From Opitutales bacterium (GTDB taxonomy: Bacteria > Verrucomicrobiota > Verrucomicrobiia > Opitutales > PNEW01): 64,000 nt of DNA. The notes beneath the pieces were generated by a model that did no database searches, was not told the origin of the DNA, and was given only the letters and a program-made list of their open reading frames with translations. The position numbers and the translations under genes are program-made. This document shows, one piece after another, positions 3,386 through 64,000 of this stretch. The DNA lies in the NCBI GenBank assembly GCA_963692525.1, contig OY829953.1, forward strand, positions 3,908,720 to 3,972,719. Reading direction: 5' to 3'. The stretch's first letter is position 1. The number at the start of each line of letters is the position of its first letter.

Positions 3386-3403
3386 TATGGGGTATCAAAA
3401 TAG

Positions 3404-3478
3404 CTTCGTCTTCGTCCTCTTTTTCCACAGCTTGCTATAACACGGACGAAGAGACTGACGTGGACGTAGACGAAGATT
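3404..3478. mobile_element. Shortest family-A element (75 bp, termini only)
   Basis: CTTCGTCTTCGTCC at the left end and GGACGTAGACGAAGATT at the right end are inverted copies. The right 37 nt match the right ends of the 14449-14802 and 26405-26820 elements. It sits 19 nt after the stop of the upstream gene. Confidence 0.55.
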
Positions 3479-3551
3479 AAAAATATAAACTTATTTGGAT
3501 CTTAATTCTTTATTTTATAAATTCGCGCTCTACTATTCGGTTTCAATTCGC

Positions 3552-11714: not shown

Positions 11715-11970
11715 ATTCTTCGTCACCGTCTTCGTCTGCCTTTTCGTCTTTTATTTTTTAGCTGGTTTTAAGTAAAATATTCTTACAATCCAAGGTGGAG
11801 CGGGCTGCGATTCGGCTGAGCTCATCGAAGTCCTGTCCGACATAGCCTTGGCGACGGCTGATCCCTAGCACGCTTCTTCAATTACGACTTTCTCAAACGC
11901 GCTAGGGACAGCGCGTTCCACCTTTATATATTAAAGAATACTTACGATGAGGCAGACGAAGACGAAGATT
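11715..11970. mobile_element. Family-A element, 256 bp, filled form
   Basis: AATTCTTCGTC...CTTCGTC on the left and GACGAAGACGAAGATT on the right. The interior is GGTGGAGCGGGCTG + 54-nt core module + CCCTAGCACGC...GCGCTAGGG hairpin + CAGCGCGTTCCACC. It lies between convergent genes. Confidence 0.6.
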
Positions 11971-11993: not shown

Positions 11994-12689
11994 TCACCGC
12001 TTTAACTCGGCGGAAATAAAGGTGGGAACGCAGTCGGGAGGCGGTACTTTTTGTGGCACCGGGTCCTCGACATCTGGAGCATGTCCGTGGCTGAAACCGG
12101 GAAAGTATGGAAATGAATAGCGATAGCGATAGCGGGCACGCCTTTCTGCGGCAAGAAGTCGGGCTTCTATTTCGGCCAAACGAGCTTCTTCTTCGGTGCG
12201 GGCAATCTCTTCATCGCGCTCAAGGAATGCCGCGTCTAATTGATCAGAGATATCATTATCGGGAAAAATGCGGTGGAAATTCCTCCAGTAGTGGATACGA
12301 CTTTCGGCTGAAGCGGTCTTGAATTTCAGACTGTTCAGCTTTTCTTTTTTCAGTTCGAGCCCCCTGATGATTCGCTGTTGATTACGCTCTTTGGCGAGTA
12401 AGACTGCGAGTTCGCGCCGTTTTTTCTCTCGGGCATGTTTCACTGCCGCCGCGCTTTCGTTGATGAGCTTAATTTCTGTCACTACACCATCGATAAATAT
12501 TACTTCACCTCGATCGAAAAAATAGGTCTGTTTTTCATTAACAGAAATAGCGCCGTTAGGGCTGCCGAGGACAGCCTGAACACGATTAATTGAATCCCCC
12601 TCTTTCACCACGGCAGAAAATCCGGTTGAGAAAGAAAATAAAACCACAAGGCTGAGAGGACCGCATATTCGCTTGGAAAGTGTCATCAT
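11994..12689 (-). CDS. Hypothetical secreted coiled-coil protein
   Basis: ATG 12689 gives MMTLSKRICGPLSLVVLFSF, a signal peptide; the ORF-track extension to 12803 is unlikely. It has a charged Arg/Glu-rich helical middle and a Pro-rich tail. Confidence 0.5.
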   Translation of the reverse strand: MMTLSKRICGPLSLVVLFSFSTGFSAVVKEGDSINRVQAVLGSPNGAISVNEKQTYFFDRGEVIFIDGVVTEIKLINESAAAVKHAREKKRRELAVLLAKERNQQRIIRGLELKKEKLNSLKFKTASAESRIHYWRNFHRIFPDNDISDQLDAAFLERDEEIARTEEEARLAEIEARLLAAERRARYRYRYSFPYFPGFSHGHAPDVEDPVPQKVPPPDCVPTFISAELKR

Positions 12690-14448: not shown

Positions 14449-14802
14449 CTCTTCGTCTGCCTCTTAGTCTTCGTCCCAGACGCCCTAATACTTCATGATT
14501 ATTGTAGCTTAAGATGGAGCGGGCTGCGATTCGGCTGAGCTCATCGAAGTCCTGTCCGACATAGCCTTGGCGACGGCTGATGCATAGCACGCTCCTTCAA
14601 CTACAACTAACTTAAACGCGTTAGGGATCAGCCATCCTGGAGGGCCACGCTCCTGCCTGTCCGACATAGCCTTGGCATCGGCTGATCGTGGCCGTTAATA
14701 ACATTTCAAAGCGGACGCAATGGAATGCGTCCCTCCATTCCTTATAAAATAATAGGATCTCTATAACAGACGAAGAGCCTGACGTGGACAAAGACGAAGA
14801 TT
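14449..14802. mobile_element. Family-A element, 354 bp long form
   Basis: CTCTTCGTCTGC on the left and GACAAAGACGAAGATT on the right. It is nearly colinear with 26405-26820, including the GGAGGG-GGCCACG...CGTGGCC-GGACGCAatggaaTGCGTCC-CTCC module. Confidence 0.6.
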
Positions 14803-22423: not shown

Positions 22424-22541
22424 GGGCAAAGGGGCAAAAAGATGTCATCGATATAACAGGTGTTTGATCAATTATTTCAGGTGGGGTTGCATTAAAATTA
22501 TTCCAATTGTAGCACGAAGCTCTATTTTCCATCTCTAAACA

Positions 22542-22573
22542 TTTTGACTTTTTGACCTTTTGACTTTTTGACT
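22542..22573 (+). repeat. (TTTTGACY)4 octamer array
   Basis: ttttgact ttttgacc ttttgact ttttgact, ending 8 nt before ATG 22582. It is identical to the array at 34291-34322. Confidence 0.9.
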
Positions 22574-22581
22574 TAACAACA

Positions 22582-26404: not shown

Positions 26405-26820
26405 CTCTTCGTCTTCGCTTGCCACGTCGTAGACTTCTGCGAAGACGGGTATGCCTTCATCGTCTTGTAGGTTACACCTTGATACTTCATAAATATTGTA
26501 GCTTAAGGTGGAGCGGGCTGCGATTCGGCTGAGCTCATCGAAGTCCTGTCCGACATAGCCTTGGCGACAGCTGATCTCAAGCACGCTTCTTCAATTACGA
26601 CATAATTAAACGCGCTAGGGACAGCGCGTTCCACCTTAATATTGCCATAGAAATATGGAGGGCAACGCTCCTGCTTGTCGGCCATAGCCATGGCGTCGGC
26701 TGATCGTGGCCGTTGACAACATTTCAAAGCGGACGCAATGGAATGCGTCCCTCCATTCCTTATAAAATAATAGGATCTCTATAACAGACGAAGAGACTGA
26801 CGGGGACGAAGACGAAGATT
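26405..26820. mobile_element. Family-A element, 416 bp, longest copy
   Basis: CTCTTCGTCTTCGC on the left and GACGAAGACGAAGATT on the right, with all modules present (see findings). ORF-track entries 26285..26584 and 26503..26727 lie inside it and are not credible. Confidence 0.65.
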
Positions 26821-34108: not shown

Positions 34109-34266
34109 GATGGAACGCGCTGTCCCTAGCGCGTTAGTTATAAGTATTAATAATAGAAGCGCGCTGAGGACCAACATTCGCCAAGGCTATGGCAGGCAGG
34201 ACTTCGATGAGCTCCCTTCGGCATGAGCTCAGGGCCGAATGCAGCCGAATCGCAGCCCGCTCCACC
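34109..34266. repeat. Family-A core in inverted orientation, long-insert variant, no terminal repeats
   Basis: GATGGAACGCGCTGTCCCTAGCGCG ... CGCAGCCCGCTCCACC, carrying the extra TTCGGC/GCCGAA hairpin variant also seen at 63920-63965. Confidence 0.7.
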
Positions 34267-34290
34267 TAAAACGCGTTCGCGTCTTCAACG

Positions 34291-34322
34291 TTTTGACTTT
34301 TTGACCTTTTGACTTTTTGACT
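34291..34322 (+). repeat. (TTTTGACY)4 octamer array
   Basis: The same 32-mer as 22542-22573, located 76 nt upstream of ATG 34399. Confidence 0.9.
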
Positions 34323-34398
34323 TTTATCATATTACCCTCGGTTTGAAAAATACCGGGATATATATTTTATTAATAAATATGATGAAGGAGATTAAAGA

Positions 34399-35632: not shown

Positions 35633-35691
35633 CATTTGAGGATATCGGGCTTCGCCCTCGGCACGCTTCACCGCATTCACGCATAACCGCC
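35633..35691 (-). repeat. C unit (GTGCCGAGGGCGAAGCCCGATATCCTCAAATG on the minus strand) with flanking homology
   Basis: It matches 50201-50232 and 59361-59392, and ends 12 nt before ATG 35703. Confidence 0.8.
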
Positions 35692-41673: not shown

Positions 41674-41838
41674 GTCAAAAGGTCAAAAAGGGAGGAGCGC
41701 TGATGCGCGTATTAAATTATAAGATAATTAACTTTATACAAGCATTGCTACTTTTTACTGATCACTGATAAATGATTTCTGTCTAGACATCCTGCATCAT
41801 CCAACGTTTTGACCTTTTGACTTTTTGACCTTTTGACT
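41674..41838. repeat. Inverted pair of octamer arrays flanking a 116-bp AT-rich core
   Basis: (GTCAAAAR)2 at 41674-41689 and (TTTTGACY)4 at 41807-41838, lying between convergent genes. Confidence 0.85.
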
Positions 41839-46279: not shown

Positions 46280-46338
46280 CTGGAGGGCCACGCTCCTGCC
46301 TGTCGGCCATAGCCTTGGCGTCGGCTGATCGTGGCCGT
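46280..46338 (+). repeat. Solitary core-in-stem module
   Basis: CTGGAGG-GCCACG-ctcctgcc-TGTCGGCCATAGCCTTGGCGTCGGCTGAT-CGTGGCC-GT, identical in plan to the internal modules at 14638-14696, 26655-26713 and 61319-61378 (inverted). Confidence 0.8.
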
Positions 46339-49598: not shown

Positions 49599-49674
49599 GT
49601 CAAAAGGTCAAAAAGTCAAAAGGTCAAAAAGGAAATGCGATTAAGCTTTTGACTATTTGACCAGTACCTTTGAC
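49599..49674. repeat. Inverted octamer arrays filling the gap between two cistrons
   Basis: (GTCAAAAR)4 at 49599-49630 starts 6 nt from the ATG (49592, minus strand). The degenerate CTTTTGAC TATTTGAC ... CTTTGACC at 49646-49674 abuts the upstream stop at 49675. Confidence 0.85.
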
Positions 49675-50139
49675 CTATTCTAAAACTTCCGGAACAATCA
49701 TCCAAGCAATAGACCAATTGTCAATTTCCCGGTATTCTAGGCAGAGAATTCCGCCGTTTTGAAAGATAACAACATCTGAATTTTCGTCGGCGATTACGAG
49801 CAGTGCCGCAAGTCTATTTAGAAAAGGTAAATGCCCAACGATCATAATGTCGGCTCCACCCTCTTCTATCACCTGTTTCATATCTCCTACCGGATCATTG
49901 GGGGATAATCCATCACGCTCGATTAATTCGCACGACGAGGCAATCGATGGATGTAAAATCTCGGCTGTATGGCGCGCGCGCGTCTTACCACTGTGCCAAA
50001 GACTGCCGATTCTCAGACTTAACGATTTTAGGGCGACAGCTACTTTTTCAACATCACGAATACCCTTATCAGTAAGTCCACGATCAGGGTCTTCCTCTTT
50101 CGATTTTGCTTCGCCGTGTTGGACCAGGTATAAGCGCAT
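49675..50139 (-). CDS. sixA: SixA-like phosphohistidine phosphatase (histidine phosphatase superfamily)
   Basis: MRLYLVQHGEA (Q in place of the usual R of the RHG motif), HSGKTRARHTAE and VGHLP; 154 aa. Confidence 0.65.
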   Translation of the reverse strand: MRLYLVQHGEAKSKEEDPDRGLTDKGIRDVEKVAVALKSLSLRIGSLWHSGKTRARHTAEILHPSIASSCELIERDGLSPNDPVGDMKQVIEEGGADIMIVGHLPFLNRLAALLVIADENSDVVIFQNGGILCLEYREIDNWSIAWMIVPEVLE

Positions 50140-50145
50140 ATATCA

Positions 50146-50296
50146 GTCAAAAGGTCAAAAAGTCAAAAGGTCAAAAGGATATGCGTGAACGCGATTAAGC
50201 GTACCGAGGGCGAAGCCCGACATCCTCAAATGTGGAAATAACTTTCACCCTTAAACTTTTTGACCTTTTGACCTTTTGACCTTTTGACCTTTTGAC
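50146..50296. repeat. Inverted octamer arrays flanking a C unit
   Basis: (GTCAAAAR)4 at 50146-50177 starts 6 nt from ATG 50139 (minus strand). The C unit is at 50201-50232 and (CTTTTGAC)5 at 50256-50296. A GCGAC aagg GTCGC hairpin follows. Confidence 0.9.
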
Positions 50297-50315
50297 GTCG
50301 CGACAAGGGTCGCTA

Positions 50316-53874: not shown

Positions 53875-54075
53875 CACCCCAGCGGGGTGTAACATTCGTA
53901 GCCCGCAGCGTAAGCTGTGGGTTAAAATATGTGCCATATAAATTAAGCCCCAGCGGGGCGACACAATAACCGTCGAAAGCGATGTTGTGTCGCCCCGCTG
54001 GGGCTCTGAATTATAAAATATCACTCCCACCCACAGCTCACGCTGTGGGCTAAACCTATGCCGCCCCTCCGGGGC
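53875..54075. repeat. Mirror-symmetric array of five hairpins
   Basis: CACCCCagcGGGGTG (53875-89). CCCGCAGC-GTAA-GCTGTGGG (53902-21). A 20-bp perfect stem, GCCCCAGCGGGGCGACACAA / TTGTGTCGCCCCGCTGGGGC (53947-54004). CCCACAGC-TCAC-GCTGTGGG (54030-49). GCCCCtccGGGGC (54063-75). Confidence 0.85.
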
Positions 54076-54206
54076 TGATAGAGTACGTTAAGGATAAGTT
54101 TTAACATCTTCCTTTTTACATTAATTCGTAAGTATCTAACAGTGATGAGGGGGAAGCCGATGACCAAGATAACCGTGATTATACTTTGCCTTAATGCCTT
54201 TTATAA

Positions 54207-59279: not shown

Positions 59280-59535
59280 GTCAAAAAGTCGAAAAGTATA
59301 CGCGTACCGAGGTCGAAGTCCGACATCCTCACATGCGTTTAAGCGGTTATGCGATAAAGAGTGCCGAGGGCGAAGCCCGACATCCTCAAATGGGAATAAG
59401 CGGATACTGCTATGAATTTCCTGCAACACTCTGACCTTCTGGCTTGGAAGATGTCGTTCCGCGAATATGGAACTCGGAACCGGTTCTCTAGCCTTCCTGC
59501 ATAAATCCGCAATCGCATATCGCAAATCGACAATT
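59280..59535. repeat. Mosaic of octamers, two C units, a D unit and AATCCGCAATCG motifs
   Basis: GTCAAAAA GTCGAAAA at 59280-59295, C units at 59304-59335 and 59361-59392, the D unit at 59431-59482, and AATCCGCAATCGCATATCGCAAATCG at 59507-59532. It fills the whole gap between convergent genes. Confidence 0.85.
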
Positions 59536-61197: not shown

Positions 61198-61545
61198 ATA
61201 ATCTTCGTCTGCGTCTTTAATAAGGCTCCTTAGAAATGGAGGGACGCACGGAGCATGTCGGCCATAGTACCGCAACAGCGAAGACGACGGCTGATTGCGT
61301 CCGTTTGACAAGATGGTTACGGCCACGATCAACCGACGCCAAGGCTATGGCCGACAGGCAGGAGCGTGGCCCTCCAGGCGACGGCTGACCCCAAGCGCGC
61401 TTCTTCATTTACAACTCACTTAAACGCGCTAGGGACCAACCTTCGCCAAGGCTATGGCTGGCAGGACTTCGATGAGCTCAGCCGAATCGCAGCGCGTTCC
61501 ACCATGATATTATAGTTAATGATTGGACAGACGAAGACGAAGATT
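61198..61545. mobile_element. Family-A element, 348 bp, inverted module order, with an extra nested core
   Basis: AATAATCTTCGTCTGCGTC on the left and GACGAAGACGAAGATT on the right. The GGACGCA/TGCGTCC hairpin carries a 47-nt core-like insert in its loop. Confidence 0.6.
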
Positions 61546-63484: not shown

Positions 63485-63692
63485 ATTAGTCTTCGTCTCT
63501 GGCTAATATAGATTATCTTGCAATCCATGGTGGAGCGGGCTGTCCCTAGCACGCTTCTTCAATTACAACTTAATCAAACGCGCTAGGGACAGCGCGTTCC
63601 ACCTATCTATTCTATTAATAACTGGATGGACGAGGAGGCTGACCCGTCTTCGCAGTAGTCTACGACGTGGCAAGCGCGGACAGAGACGAAGA
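63485..63692. mobile_element. Family-A element, empty form (no core module)
   Basis: ATTAGTCTTCGTC on the left and GACAGAGACGAAGATG on the right. The interior GGTGGAGCGGGCTG-TCCCTAGCACGC ... GCGCTAGGGACAGCGCGTTCCACC is an uninterrupted 26-bp-arm palindrome. Confidence 0.6.
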
Positions 63693-63861: not shown

Positions 63862-64000
63862 ATTAGTCTTCGTCTCTGGCAAATATAGATTATCTTGCAA
63901 TCCATGGTGGAGCGGGCTGCGATTCGGCTGCATTCGGCCCTGAGCTCATGCCGAAGGGAGCTCATCGAAGTCCTGTCCGACATAGCCTTGGCGACGGCTG
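63862..64000. repeat. Family-A element, filled form, truncated by window end
   Basis: The same 85-nt left part as 63456-63542, but GGGCTG is followed by the long core module (CGATTCGGCTGCATTCGGCCCTGAGCTCATGCCGAAGGGAGCTCATCGAAGTCCTGTCCGACATAGCCTTGGCGACGGCTG). Confidence 0.7.

Follow-up and report, generated by a model that had tools for sequence, protein, structure and literature searches.

A 47-nucleotide hairpin loop in an Opitutales intergenic mosaic as a probable discrete insertion of a dispersed core repeat into a REP-like palindrome

We analyzed a 64,000-nucleotide stretch of the genome of an Opitutales bacterium (assembly GCA_963692525.1, contig OY829953.1, positions 3,908,720 to 3,972,719; hereafter the window), concentrating on an intergenic element at positions 61198-61545. 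We conclude, with a probability of roughly 70%, that this element is one copy of a mosaic repeat resembling bacterial interspersed mosaic elements (BIMEs) and that the 47-nt loop of one of its hairpins is a discrete insertion of a short dispersed repeat, the core, into a palindrome like those of the repetitive extragenic palindromic (REP) kind. A search for the GGACGCA/TGCGTCC hairpin (CGGACGCA-N(1-61)-TGCGTCCCTCCATT) returned three matches in the window, at 14712-14739(+), 26730-26757(+), and 61235-61303(-), where shuffled sequences are expected to give none. Both short copies on the + strand, whose hairpins proper lie at 14713-14732 and 26731-26750, have the loop ATGGAA, and the third copy, on the - strand, encloses 47 nt (+ strand: CGGAGCATGTCGGCCATAGTACCGCAACAGCGAAGACGACGGCTGAT). 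This bears out a preliminary description, made from the sequence alone, that had quoted the same loop within this stem. Its stem coordinates (61244-61250 and 61298-61304) were 2 nt too high; the arms occupy 61242-61248 and 61296-61302, and the whole hairpin spans 61242-61302.

Both ends of the 47-nt loop match the core exactly (12/12 and 10/10 positions). The left end bears TGTCGGCCATAG (61256-61267), a string with four exact copies in the window; GACGGCTGAT (61286-61295), at the right end, has five. Both strings are overrepresented in the window when mismatches are tolerated, with 14 matches to the first against 3.9 expected (two mismatches allowed) and 12 matches to the second against 3.3 expected (one mismatch allowed). 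The loop content is therefore a member of the core family, as had been proposed, and it finishes in CGGCTGAT as other copies do. It is not, however, the 29-nt core for which it was first taken. Its centre, TACCGCAACAGCGAAGAC, is 18 nt long and occurs once in the window, whereas the standard core centre, CCTTGGCG, has 8 nt, and its loop prefix is CGGAGCA instead of CTCCTGCC. We refer to this separate long-centre subfamily as core-L; the copy studied here (TGTCGGCCATAG - TACCGCAACAGCGAAGAC - GACGGCTGA) occupies 61256-61294(+).

The hairpin that carries the insert is not a second, different target, as the preliminary description had it, but the inverted homologue of the GGCCACG/CGTGGCC hairpin beside it. 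Read on its own strand, the former is TGGAG-GGACGCA-CTCCGT-TGCGTCC-G and the latter TGGAGGG-CCACG-CTCCGT-CGTGG-CC. Since the TGGAG tag, the 7-bp stem, and the CTCCGT loop are common to both, they are inverted versions of one unit, whose type 1 (GGCCACG) and type 2 (GGACGCA) differ only in the stem variant. The doublet is a REP-like tail-to-tail heterodimer (5' TGGAG-GGCCACG-CTCCGT-CGTGGCC ... GGACGCA-ACGGAG-TGCGTCC-CTCCA 3'). All copies of the neighboring hairpin in the window hold a standard core, so the apparent second kind of nesting mirrors one that had been overlooked. In an ungapped alignment of 16 distinct units, the 7-bp stem was 99% paired, with both-sided changes in five of the seven pairs, and the TGGAG tag was near-invariant (GGAG in 14 units, GAAG in one, and GTAG in one, from locus L006). 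We also considered kissing-loop covariation between CTCCGT and ACGGAG and rejected it, because inverted copies of one unit automatically give complementary loops. The window contains eight REP units, all intergenic, along with about 10 copies of another palindrome, hairpin B, in both orientations and adjoining unrelated genes. The window has tail-to-tail doublets; the head-to-head arrangement was seen at 46.24-46.34 kb and in the related genome L030. With both of its loops filled, a 144-nt doublet was predicted to fold into one long hairpin at -37.4 kcal/mol (z = -5.6), with outer pairing of TGGAGGG and CCCTCCA.

The insertion is discrete. In about 340 kb of sampled sequence, which served for the census of units, loops, and cores and came, like all genomes compared here, from metagenome-assembled genomes (MAGs) or metagenome assemblies, the loops of GGAG-tagged type-1 and type-2 units were either 6 nt (n = 22) or 37, 41, 47, or 53 nt long. 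Intermediate forms, which the preliminary description had named as the finding that would speak for gradual change, were looked for among these tagged units, and none of 7 to 36 nt were found. A 21-nt loop at L029 4093-4127 was rejected as an intermediate; it lies inside an annotated acetyltransferase gene and lacks core sequence. Orthologous sites exist in empty and filled form. L027 is empty at 12093-12112 (CTCCGT), and L023 is filled at 11904-11954 (CTCC-TGCCTGTCGGCCATAGCCTTGGCGTCGGCTGA-T), with flanks conserved on both sides. Similarly, one 31-nt indel separates the empty site at 8813-8832 in L021 from the filled site at 8551-8601 in L020, the window genome itself (ENA record ERZ28669063, contig ctg27034). 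In hairpin B, GGTG^TCCC in L020 corresponds to GGTG-CCTGACGGCCATAGCCTTGGCGACGGCTGT-TCCC in L021 (here and below, ^ marks a core site or a cleavage site), a difference of +30 nt with unambiguous boundaries. Every type-1 loop in the window has 37 nt (CTCC-TGCC-TGTCGGCCATAG-CCTTGGCG-TCGGCTGA-T), in place of which relatives and other phyla have CTCCGT. The empty state is probably ancestral, because other phyla have CTCCGT-type loops only and because slippage between short CTG repeats cannot turn a filled loop into an empty one.

The two units of a doublet fill independently. Both are empty in L021 at 8.8 kb, in L027 at 12.1 kb, in L030, and in other phyla. Unit 1 alone is filled in the window doublets at 14.6k and 26.6k (14639-14736(+) and 26657-26754(+), with the ATGGAA loops noted above in unit 2), in L023, and at L015 259-390; unit 2 alone is filled at L015 1200-1339; and both are filled at 61.3k in the window, in L021, and at L027 366-509. 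Polarity is fixed as well. The core runs forward from the tag of its own unit in 12/12 filled REP units and forward from the outer arm in 14/14 half-sites of hairpin B. Because the tag of its own unit sets its direction, a core in the second unit of a doublet looks inverted; core-L at 61.3k, forward on the + strand, is forward relative to the GGAG tag of its unit at 61238-61241(+). Hairpin B (GGTGGAGCGGGCTG^TCCCTAGC ... GCTAGGGA^CAGCGCGTTCCACC) holds a core in either arm, in both, or in neither, so that all four states are represented. It had been thought that each insertion lies near a hairpin apex, but the GGCTG-junction site in B sits away from the apex, inside a continuous helix at the point where the outer stem gives way to the inner one.

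Cores are present in hosts of different sequence. A solo core occurs at CTTG^TGCT in L024, and across contexts the left junctions (GCTG^ or GGTG^ in B, CTTG^ in this solo core, and, for REP loops, CTCC^ or CCTG^) have only TG^ in common. A 28/29 match to the Opitutales core (CTGTCGGCCATAGCCTCGGCGTCGGCTGA) was also observed on a viral contig (L033 1737-1765; IMGVR_UViG_3300037755_001060) in a stretch of 67% G+C. It occurs once there, with neither a REP unit nor hairpin B close by, and was the only core match in our scan of viral contigs. The 47-nt loop itself recurs in identical form at L020 452-512, about 8 kb beyond the window and alongside a degenerate empty partner, and in the L021 ortholog. 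Core-L is found in a type-1 stem as well, at L027 449-509, with the related prefix CGGTGCT. Since the loop stands at a second locus and core-L in another stem, the insert belongs to a replicating subfamily, and it has been placed in stems without mutual homology.

The core is 30-46 nt long and forms one small hairpin. Filled loops differ in length only at the core centre, where 8, 12, 18, or 24 nt correspond to loops of 37, 41, 47, and 53 nt. Centre variants include CCTTGG, CCATGG, CCCAGGGGGG, TCCCGC-CACT-GCGGGA, TCCTGCCCG-ACCG-CGGGACGGGA, and, in the 47-nt insert, TACCGCAACAGCGAAGA. In the predicted folds, long-centre variants have GCC(T)GTCG/CGAC-GGC as their basal stem, then GCCATAG left unpaired, a mini-hairpin of variable sequence at the apex, and TGA as a tail. 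These folds overturned our first judgement that the core flanks do not pair. As inverted repeats, the core ends match at 5/9 positions; they carry direct repeats instead (GTCGGC ... GTCGGC), and there is no target duplication. Subfamilies follow context, with TGTCGGCC...GTCGG in REP loops and TGTCCGAC...GACGG in B. A third subfamily, with the prefix (C/T)GGATGCC and the centre CCCAG(R)GGGGCG, occupies type-2-like stems of L015 and L027. As a separate observation, the 5' half of the core together with its prefix (TGCCTGTCGGCCATAGC; window 61328-61364, and every core, e.g., 46297-46329) is alike at 15/17 positions to the 5' end of bacterial 5S rRNA (E. coli TGCCTGGCGGCCGTAGC). The 3' flank of the core pairs with the 5' half as helix I of 5S rRNA would. 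The Rfam 5S model gave no match on the element, and the likeness may be coincidence.

Several observations weigh against an insertion of this kind. We did not find an orthologous empty allele of the 61.3k hairpin, since L021 is filled alike and more distant relatives lack the doublet. The junctions in B are clean, but the one in the REP loop involves either +32 nt and a missing G or +31 nt and a substitution; a clean single-block insertion or a target duplication at the REP loop was accordingly rejected, as the junction requires one extra change. The remnant of the loop also differs between subfamilies (CTCC versus CGGA or CGG), and no simple model explains this. Covariation support for the basal stem of the core is weak, and isolated filled hairpins fold like shuffled sequences (z about -1.3). 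Truly independent entries number perhaps only about five, because whole filled units duplicate too. No transposase was linked to the core in 342 kb, and tblastn found no Y1/HUH gene there, although this is a weak test that used YafM and IS608 TnpA queries. A gene for a REP-associated tyrosine transposase (RAYT) is usually single-copy. Finally, cores recombine with each other. L012 has lost the stretch that separated two direct cores spaced 105 nt, and in the window the loop core at 14658 has the left flank typical of the adjoining B core. Comparison of L012 6095-6260 (in the related MAG CBDCNV01) with the orthologous composite at window 14496-14740 shows that everything from the B core to the REP-loop core is gone. 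The picture of discrete insertion given in the preliminary description therefore stood but was incomplete, as some copies are not independent insertions.

These recombination events bear on an alternative that we regard as unlikely though well short of negligible, namely, that the core was never self-mobile and that a large-loop REP variant arose once or twice and then spread by copying of units and gene conversion. The context-specific subfamilies are consistent with such hitch-hiking, as are the recombination events seen at 14658 (a mixed core) and in L012 (a deletion between cores). Furthermore, the doublet at L020 8512-8601 is near-identical to the window doublet at 26.6k and has several differences from its L021 ortholog, so that it looks converted, and whole units at the non-orthologous loci L015 1269-1345 and L027 345-419 are 87% identical. 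REP subfamilies with large loops are also already known (PMC3733652). On the other side, the core occurs in hosts without common flanks (two stem types, B, the solo site, and the high-G+C contig), so that at least five separate entries would still be required. Stems of 7 bp are moreover too short for homologous recombination. Recombination clearly contributes to the spread and homogenization of the core, and hitch-hiking with conversion may account for most copies.

It is very unlikely that the composite is instead a functional structured RNA (a small RNA, leader, or terminator) in which the 47 nt are a tolerated, lineage-specific extension of a helix. The 348-nt element does fold strongly as RNA (z = -7.8), its stems show compensatory changes, and it lies between co-directional genes in the same orientation as those genes. 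However, no Rfam family matched at E<=1 or E<=10, there is no promoter-like or terminator-like site within the element, and the B copies and REP units of the 64 kb are numerous, lie in both orientations, and have unrelated neighbors. On the element, the only Rfam hits were to miRNA and c-di-GMP-I models far below gathering scores, and seven related loci had no match. The composition of the site among close strains, which ranges from nothing to the full composite, also argues against an RNA gene.

We documented this turnover in syntenic regions from seven related genomes, picked by homologues of the flanking GDSL lipase (99% to 76% protein identity), and compared the lipase-acetyltransferase spacer in the six relatives that keep the adjacent acetyltransferase gene. 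The outermost module of the spacer is an inverted pair of short motif arms, the frame. L025 (lipase 95%) has the frame only (TCTTCGTC ... GACGAAGA), L023 (96%) has the frame alone with more hexamers, and L031 (76%) has a frame-like remnant alone, without B or REP units. In L027 (89%), the frame contains an empty hairpin B. L021 (99%) has the frame, a B with a core, and the doublet with both loops filled, the identical 47 nt included, and the window genome adds to this content an extra 24-nt block in B. The spacer of L030 (76%) is a 1.36-kb mosaic of different modules. Because the contents differ in this way, the modules are presence/absence characters among close relatives.

A further alternative, template switching, is scarcely credible here. 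In this scenario, a quasi-palindrome correction during replication would have copied the core of unit 1, inverted, into unit 2. The insert is indeed inverted relative to the adjoining core, and both cores pair in the predicted fold. Yet the two centres are wholly unlike (CCTTGGCG, 8 nt, in unit 1 versus TACCGCAACAGCGAAGAC, 18 nt, in the insert), and the remnant of the loop is TGCTCCG where GGCAGGAG would be expected. In addition, the identical 47-nt loop at L020 452-512 adjoins an empty partner, and L015 1200-1339 has a filled unit 2 beside an empty unit 1. Least probable of all is gradual expansion of the loop by slippage or drift, which agrees with the varying centre lengths of filled loops but is largely refuted for the step from 6 to 37 nt by the absence of sampled loops of 7-36 nt (the lone 21-nt loop, in L029, being coreless and genic), by orthologous alleles one 31-nt block apart, and by insert flanks that are exact copies of a dispersed repeat.

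Returning to discrete insertion, we propose that the core enters fixed positions of other palindromic repeats, with the host half-site setting its polarity. In REP loops it would enter directly 3' of CTCC, and in hairpin B after G(C/G)TG, where the outer stem adjoins the inner one. Each host, being palindromic, offers two mirror-image half-sites that are filled independently, which explains why the copy at 61.3k runs against the direction of its own element. Initially, entry into any one context would have been a transposition-like process independent of flanking homology, and the presence of the core in non-homologous hosts implies at least about five such entries. Probably, an enzyme supplied in trans acts on single-stranded DNA, either of RAYT/HUH type or another that is specific for repeats. 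A HUH/RAYT-like activity is favored because there are no terminal inverted repeats and no target duplication, because polarity is fixed and the anatomy is that of a hairpin, and because the RAYT of E. coli, when bound to a REP, cleaves nearby single-stranded DNA at CC^T, with TGCC^TGAT as its type I site, and exchanges strands (PMC3333891). The core starts with ...CTCC^TGCC^TG and ends with GGC^TGAT; the likeness to RAYT cut sites is a lead only. Later on, copy number would have grown mostly as entire host units were duplicated and through gene conversion. Where both units are filled, the cores are predicted to pair, turning the doublet into a hairpin of roughly 60 bp, whereas singly filled units retain the outer stem alone in the folds.

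A bolder proposal, which we hold only tentatively and think more doubtful than not, is that the core moves as an element in its own right, which would place it among the smallest mobile DNAs known. As a single tagged mini-hairpin, it would be copied in trans to set positions of other palindromic repeats (REP loops and the stem of hairpin B), and occasionally to other places, with strict polarity and without target duplication, as a parasite of a parasite, and both the core and its GGAG-tagged REP host would cross phyla. If so, a horizontally mobile enzyme that recognizes them is implied. An independently mobile core would lower the minimum size of mobile DNA, and short oligonucleotides would be a tractable substrate for probing the recognition specificity of a RAYT-like or other single-strand enzyme. 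If the core merely hitch-hikes, the result is an ordinary description of a repeat family.

We examined the distribution of the host with a scan of a genome collection for the GGACGCA/TGCGTCC hairpin, allowing loops of 1-61 nt, which yielded 16 loci. Two of these (L002 and L014) lie inside long open reading frames (ORFs) and are chance matches. Most of the others have a 6-nt loop (5 nt in L003), and in L007 and L009 the hairpin is repeated in tandem. The neighboring type-1 hairpin is present in at least eight loci, from a few to about 20 nt away and typically upstream. Exact 22-nt matches, which comprise the type-2 unit and its flank, mostly have 6-nt loops and a type-1 partner nearby. Across the loci other than L002 and L014, the MAGs are labelled Opitutales, Verrucomicrobiia, Lentisphaerae, Kiritimatiellia, Thermodesulfobacteriota, Bacteroidales/Porphyromonadaceae, and Oscillochloridaceae. 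The unit is therefore not restricted to one lineage: at least five phyla are represented among the labels of MAGs that hold an exact 22-nt match with a 6-nt loop, where we estimate from the size of the database about 0.07 matches by chance at a 6-nt gap. In other phyla, the motif is flanked by unrelated housekeeping genes, and no transposase is among them. A metagenome scan for this hairpin with loops of 8-68 nt gave only three matches, all in coding-like DNA, and two of them are the same Planctomycete sequence as L002. Viral contigs contained no match to the hairpin and one solo copy of the empty type-1 unit. The entire element had no BLAST match in collections of plasmids and phages, and a literature search on the sequence strings returned unrelated papers only.

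The host belongs to the tagged REP/BIME/REPIN kind or is a close variant of it (REPINs being REP doublets that form hairpins), and the comparison with REP/RAYT systems made in the preliminary description was apt. Like these repeats, it is a short stem-loop, rich in G+C, whose stem adjoins a conserved tag (here GGAG, with GTAG in one L006 unit); it is extragenic, multi-copy, mosaic with other motifs, and variable in presence among strains; and it forms inverted heterodimer doublets able to fold as a long hairpin. Tagged REPs, inverted doublets, and the REPIN-RAYT association have been described (PMC3733652; PMC3116915; PMC3333891), and Opitutus terrae, of the same order, is reported to be rich in GTAG REPs with degenerate tags (PMC3733652). 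Unlike REPIN-RAYT systems, whose tag is GTAG, the units studied here carry GGAG, which is not among the listed variants (GYAG, GYRG, GTRG, GTMG, and GTGG; PMC3733652), and a second repeat family sits inside the REP loop. REPIN-RAYT systems are also described as lineage-restricted and vertically inherited, whereas here near-identical units occur in MAGs of several phyla, in conflict with a strictly vertical view.

Large loops have precedents among REPs. In Bradyrhizobium, GTAG-14 loops hold up to 27 bp of self-complementary inner sequence, the Y, Z1, and Z2 units of E. coli differ in loop length, and REPs nested within other palindromes are on record (PMC3733652). Like these, the units reported here have a common stem with an extra, partly self-complementary block in the loop, and their dimers mix short and long loops. 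What is new is that the loop block is itself a dispersed polar repeat of about 30 nt, found also in B and alone, with empty and filled alleles in several hosts, which is not reported in that survey (PMC3733652). REP/BIME-type repeats are abundant and their diversification is poorly understood. Large-loop variants have so far gone unexplained, and insertion of the core offers a concrete explanation with alleles that segregate among close strains.

Other mobile elements resemble the core in part. The insertion sequences (ISs) ISPsy8, ISPpu9/10, ISRm22, and IS1397 insert into REPs in a site- and orientation-specific manner, several of them at the hairpin axis (PMC1525189). Those elements are 1-1.5 kb long, encode a transposase, and leave 2-6 bp direct repeats, in contrast to the core, which is about 30-40 nt long, non-coding, and without duplication. 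The lack of terminal inverted repeats and target duplication, the fixed target polarity, and the hairpin-centred anatomy recall IS200/IS605 elements and the derived palindrome-associated transposable elements (PATEs), to which the preliminary description had linked the insert. PATEs have two subterminal hairpins and are typically longer than 100 nt. This link does not hold, because the core is one small hairpin of 30-40 nt with no single fixed tetranucleotide target, and a TnpA/TnpB partner was not seen. [quoted passage not shown] Small dispersed repeats (SDRs) of Nostoc, said to have been presented by Elhai et al. in 2008 (Genome Res 18:1484; cited in PMC3116915), are reportedly 21-27 nt long, thought to be mobile, nested in hairpin-forming repeats, and without a transposase of their own. 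They belong to another phylum and have other sequences, whereas the host here is a tagged REP doublet and an explicit rule governs polarity and half-sites.

Read along the - strand, the composite begins with the left frame arm (AATCTTCGTCTTCGTCTG, 61528-61545), the inverted partner of the right arm (AAGACGCAGACGAAGATT, 61200-61217). Hairpin B follows with its outer 5' arm (GGTGGAACGCGCTG, 61490-61503; B is empty at the orthologous site in L027), next to which lies the 24-nt second-level insert (CGATTCGGCTGAGCTCATCGAAGT, 61466-61489), a clean indel that is missing in the L021 ortholog, where the lipase is 99% identical. Next come a degenerate core in the 5' half-site of B (CCTGCCAGCCATAGCCTTGGCGAAGGTTGG, 61436-61465) and the inner stem and loop (TCCCTAGCGCG ... 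GCGCGCTTGGGG, 61389-61435). In place of the usual 3' outer arm of B stands TCAGCCGTCGCC (61377-61388), the complement of the canonical right flank of the core, GGCGACGGCTGA. REP unit 1 (61321-61376) has its TGGAG at 61372-61376, its GGCCACG/CGTGGCC stem at 61365-61371 and 61321-61327, and a 37-nt loop with a standard core at 61328-61364. A spacer (GTAACCATCTTGTCAAAC, 61303-61320) leads to the inverted unit, with the 5' arm GGACGCA at 61296-61302, the 47-nt loop at 61249-61295, and the 3' arm TGCGTCC followed by CTCCA, the complement of TGGAG, at 61237-61248, where folds show the outer TGGAGGG/CCCTCCA pairing. Two ORFs cross the repeat element, one of 63 aa in the window (61217-61408(-)) and one of 84 aa in L021 (11258-11512(-)), the latter a called gene in the public record. 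Both are most likely repeat artefacts.

The 24-nt insert has a further level of its own. At 63919-63957 and 34215-34253(-), a 28-nt block (CATTCGGCCCTGAGCTCATGCCGAAGGG) follows CGATTCGGCTG inside it. The block repeats ATTCGGC and GAGCTCAT and adds GCCGAA, and from its sequence looks like palindromization by template switching rather than a foreign insertion.

Frame arms contain the octamers GACGAAGA and TCTTCGTC in runs of GACGAA-like hexamers. We counted 27 octamers, all intergenic, in a window that is about 80% coding (e.g., 3409, 3445-3476, 11717-11736, 11955-11968, 14450-14475, 26406, 26787-26818, 61202, and 61530-61543). Inverted pairs bracket B and REP doublets and also stand alone, at 3396-3480 and in the L025 and L023 spacers. 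Some arms contain a 23-nt hairpin block (CCGTCTTCGCAG(T/A)AG(T/C)CTACGACG) between GACTGAC and GTGGAC (26406-26456, 63636-63686, and L035 3645-3690), which is another level of nesting.

This genome has at least two copies of an IS110-family element that encodes a 310-aa DEDD transposase (P0014). The loci are L034 1-731, which lies to the left of the window at a distance of about 8 kb, L035 3640-4941, and L036 30-1300. The element's right end (…CATGACACAATTG) adjoins CTTCGTCC, a frame motif, with CTT at both junctions, and in L035 the element lies inside an otherwise empty frame. The left non-coding end contains AAGACGAAGCC, which is complementary to the frame motif and could be the guide of a bridge RNA. 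Frames thus appear to be targets of a repeat-specific IS; as with REP-targeting ISs, the IS110 element of this genome targets the TCTTCGTC frame of the same mosaics. We considered whether the composite derives from IS110 ends or bridge RNA and rejected this, as no similarity links the ends of the IS to B, the REP units, or the core.

Other repeats share these intergenic spaces. The window's only Rfam match at gathering score, Acido-Lenti-1 (54030-54076, 44.5 bits), is preceded by a long hairpin at 53950-54005. The two together occur twice in the 1.36-kb mosaic of L030 (11780-12230) and behave as a dispersed repeat module. Genes for small proteins of the 23S_rRNA_IVP family (PF05635) are found at L027 14787-15185 and L024 847-1245, with none there in the window genome; they are strain-variable insertions in the same intergenic spaces. 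A dispersed intergenic repeat with GTACCGAGGGCGAAGCCCGACATCCTCAAATG has four copies in the window (35633-35688(-), 50177-50232, and 59283-59392) and also appears in indels between L020 and L021. Arrays of three to five copies of an 8-nt unit (TTTTGACC/TTTTTGAC) adjoin gene ends and starts at 22540-22580, 34287-34329, 41805-41837, 49599-49637, 50146-50176, and 50256-50304, and an inverted pair of such arrays (49599-49645 and 50250-50296) flanks an ORF at 49675-50139.

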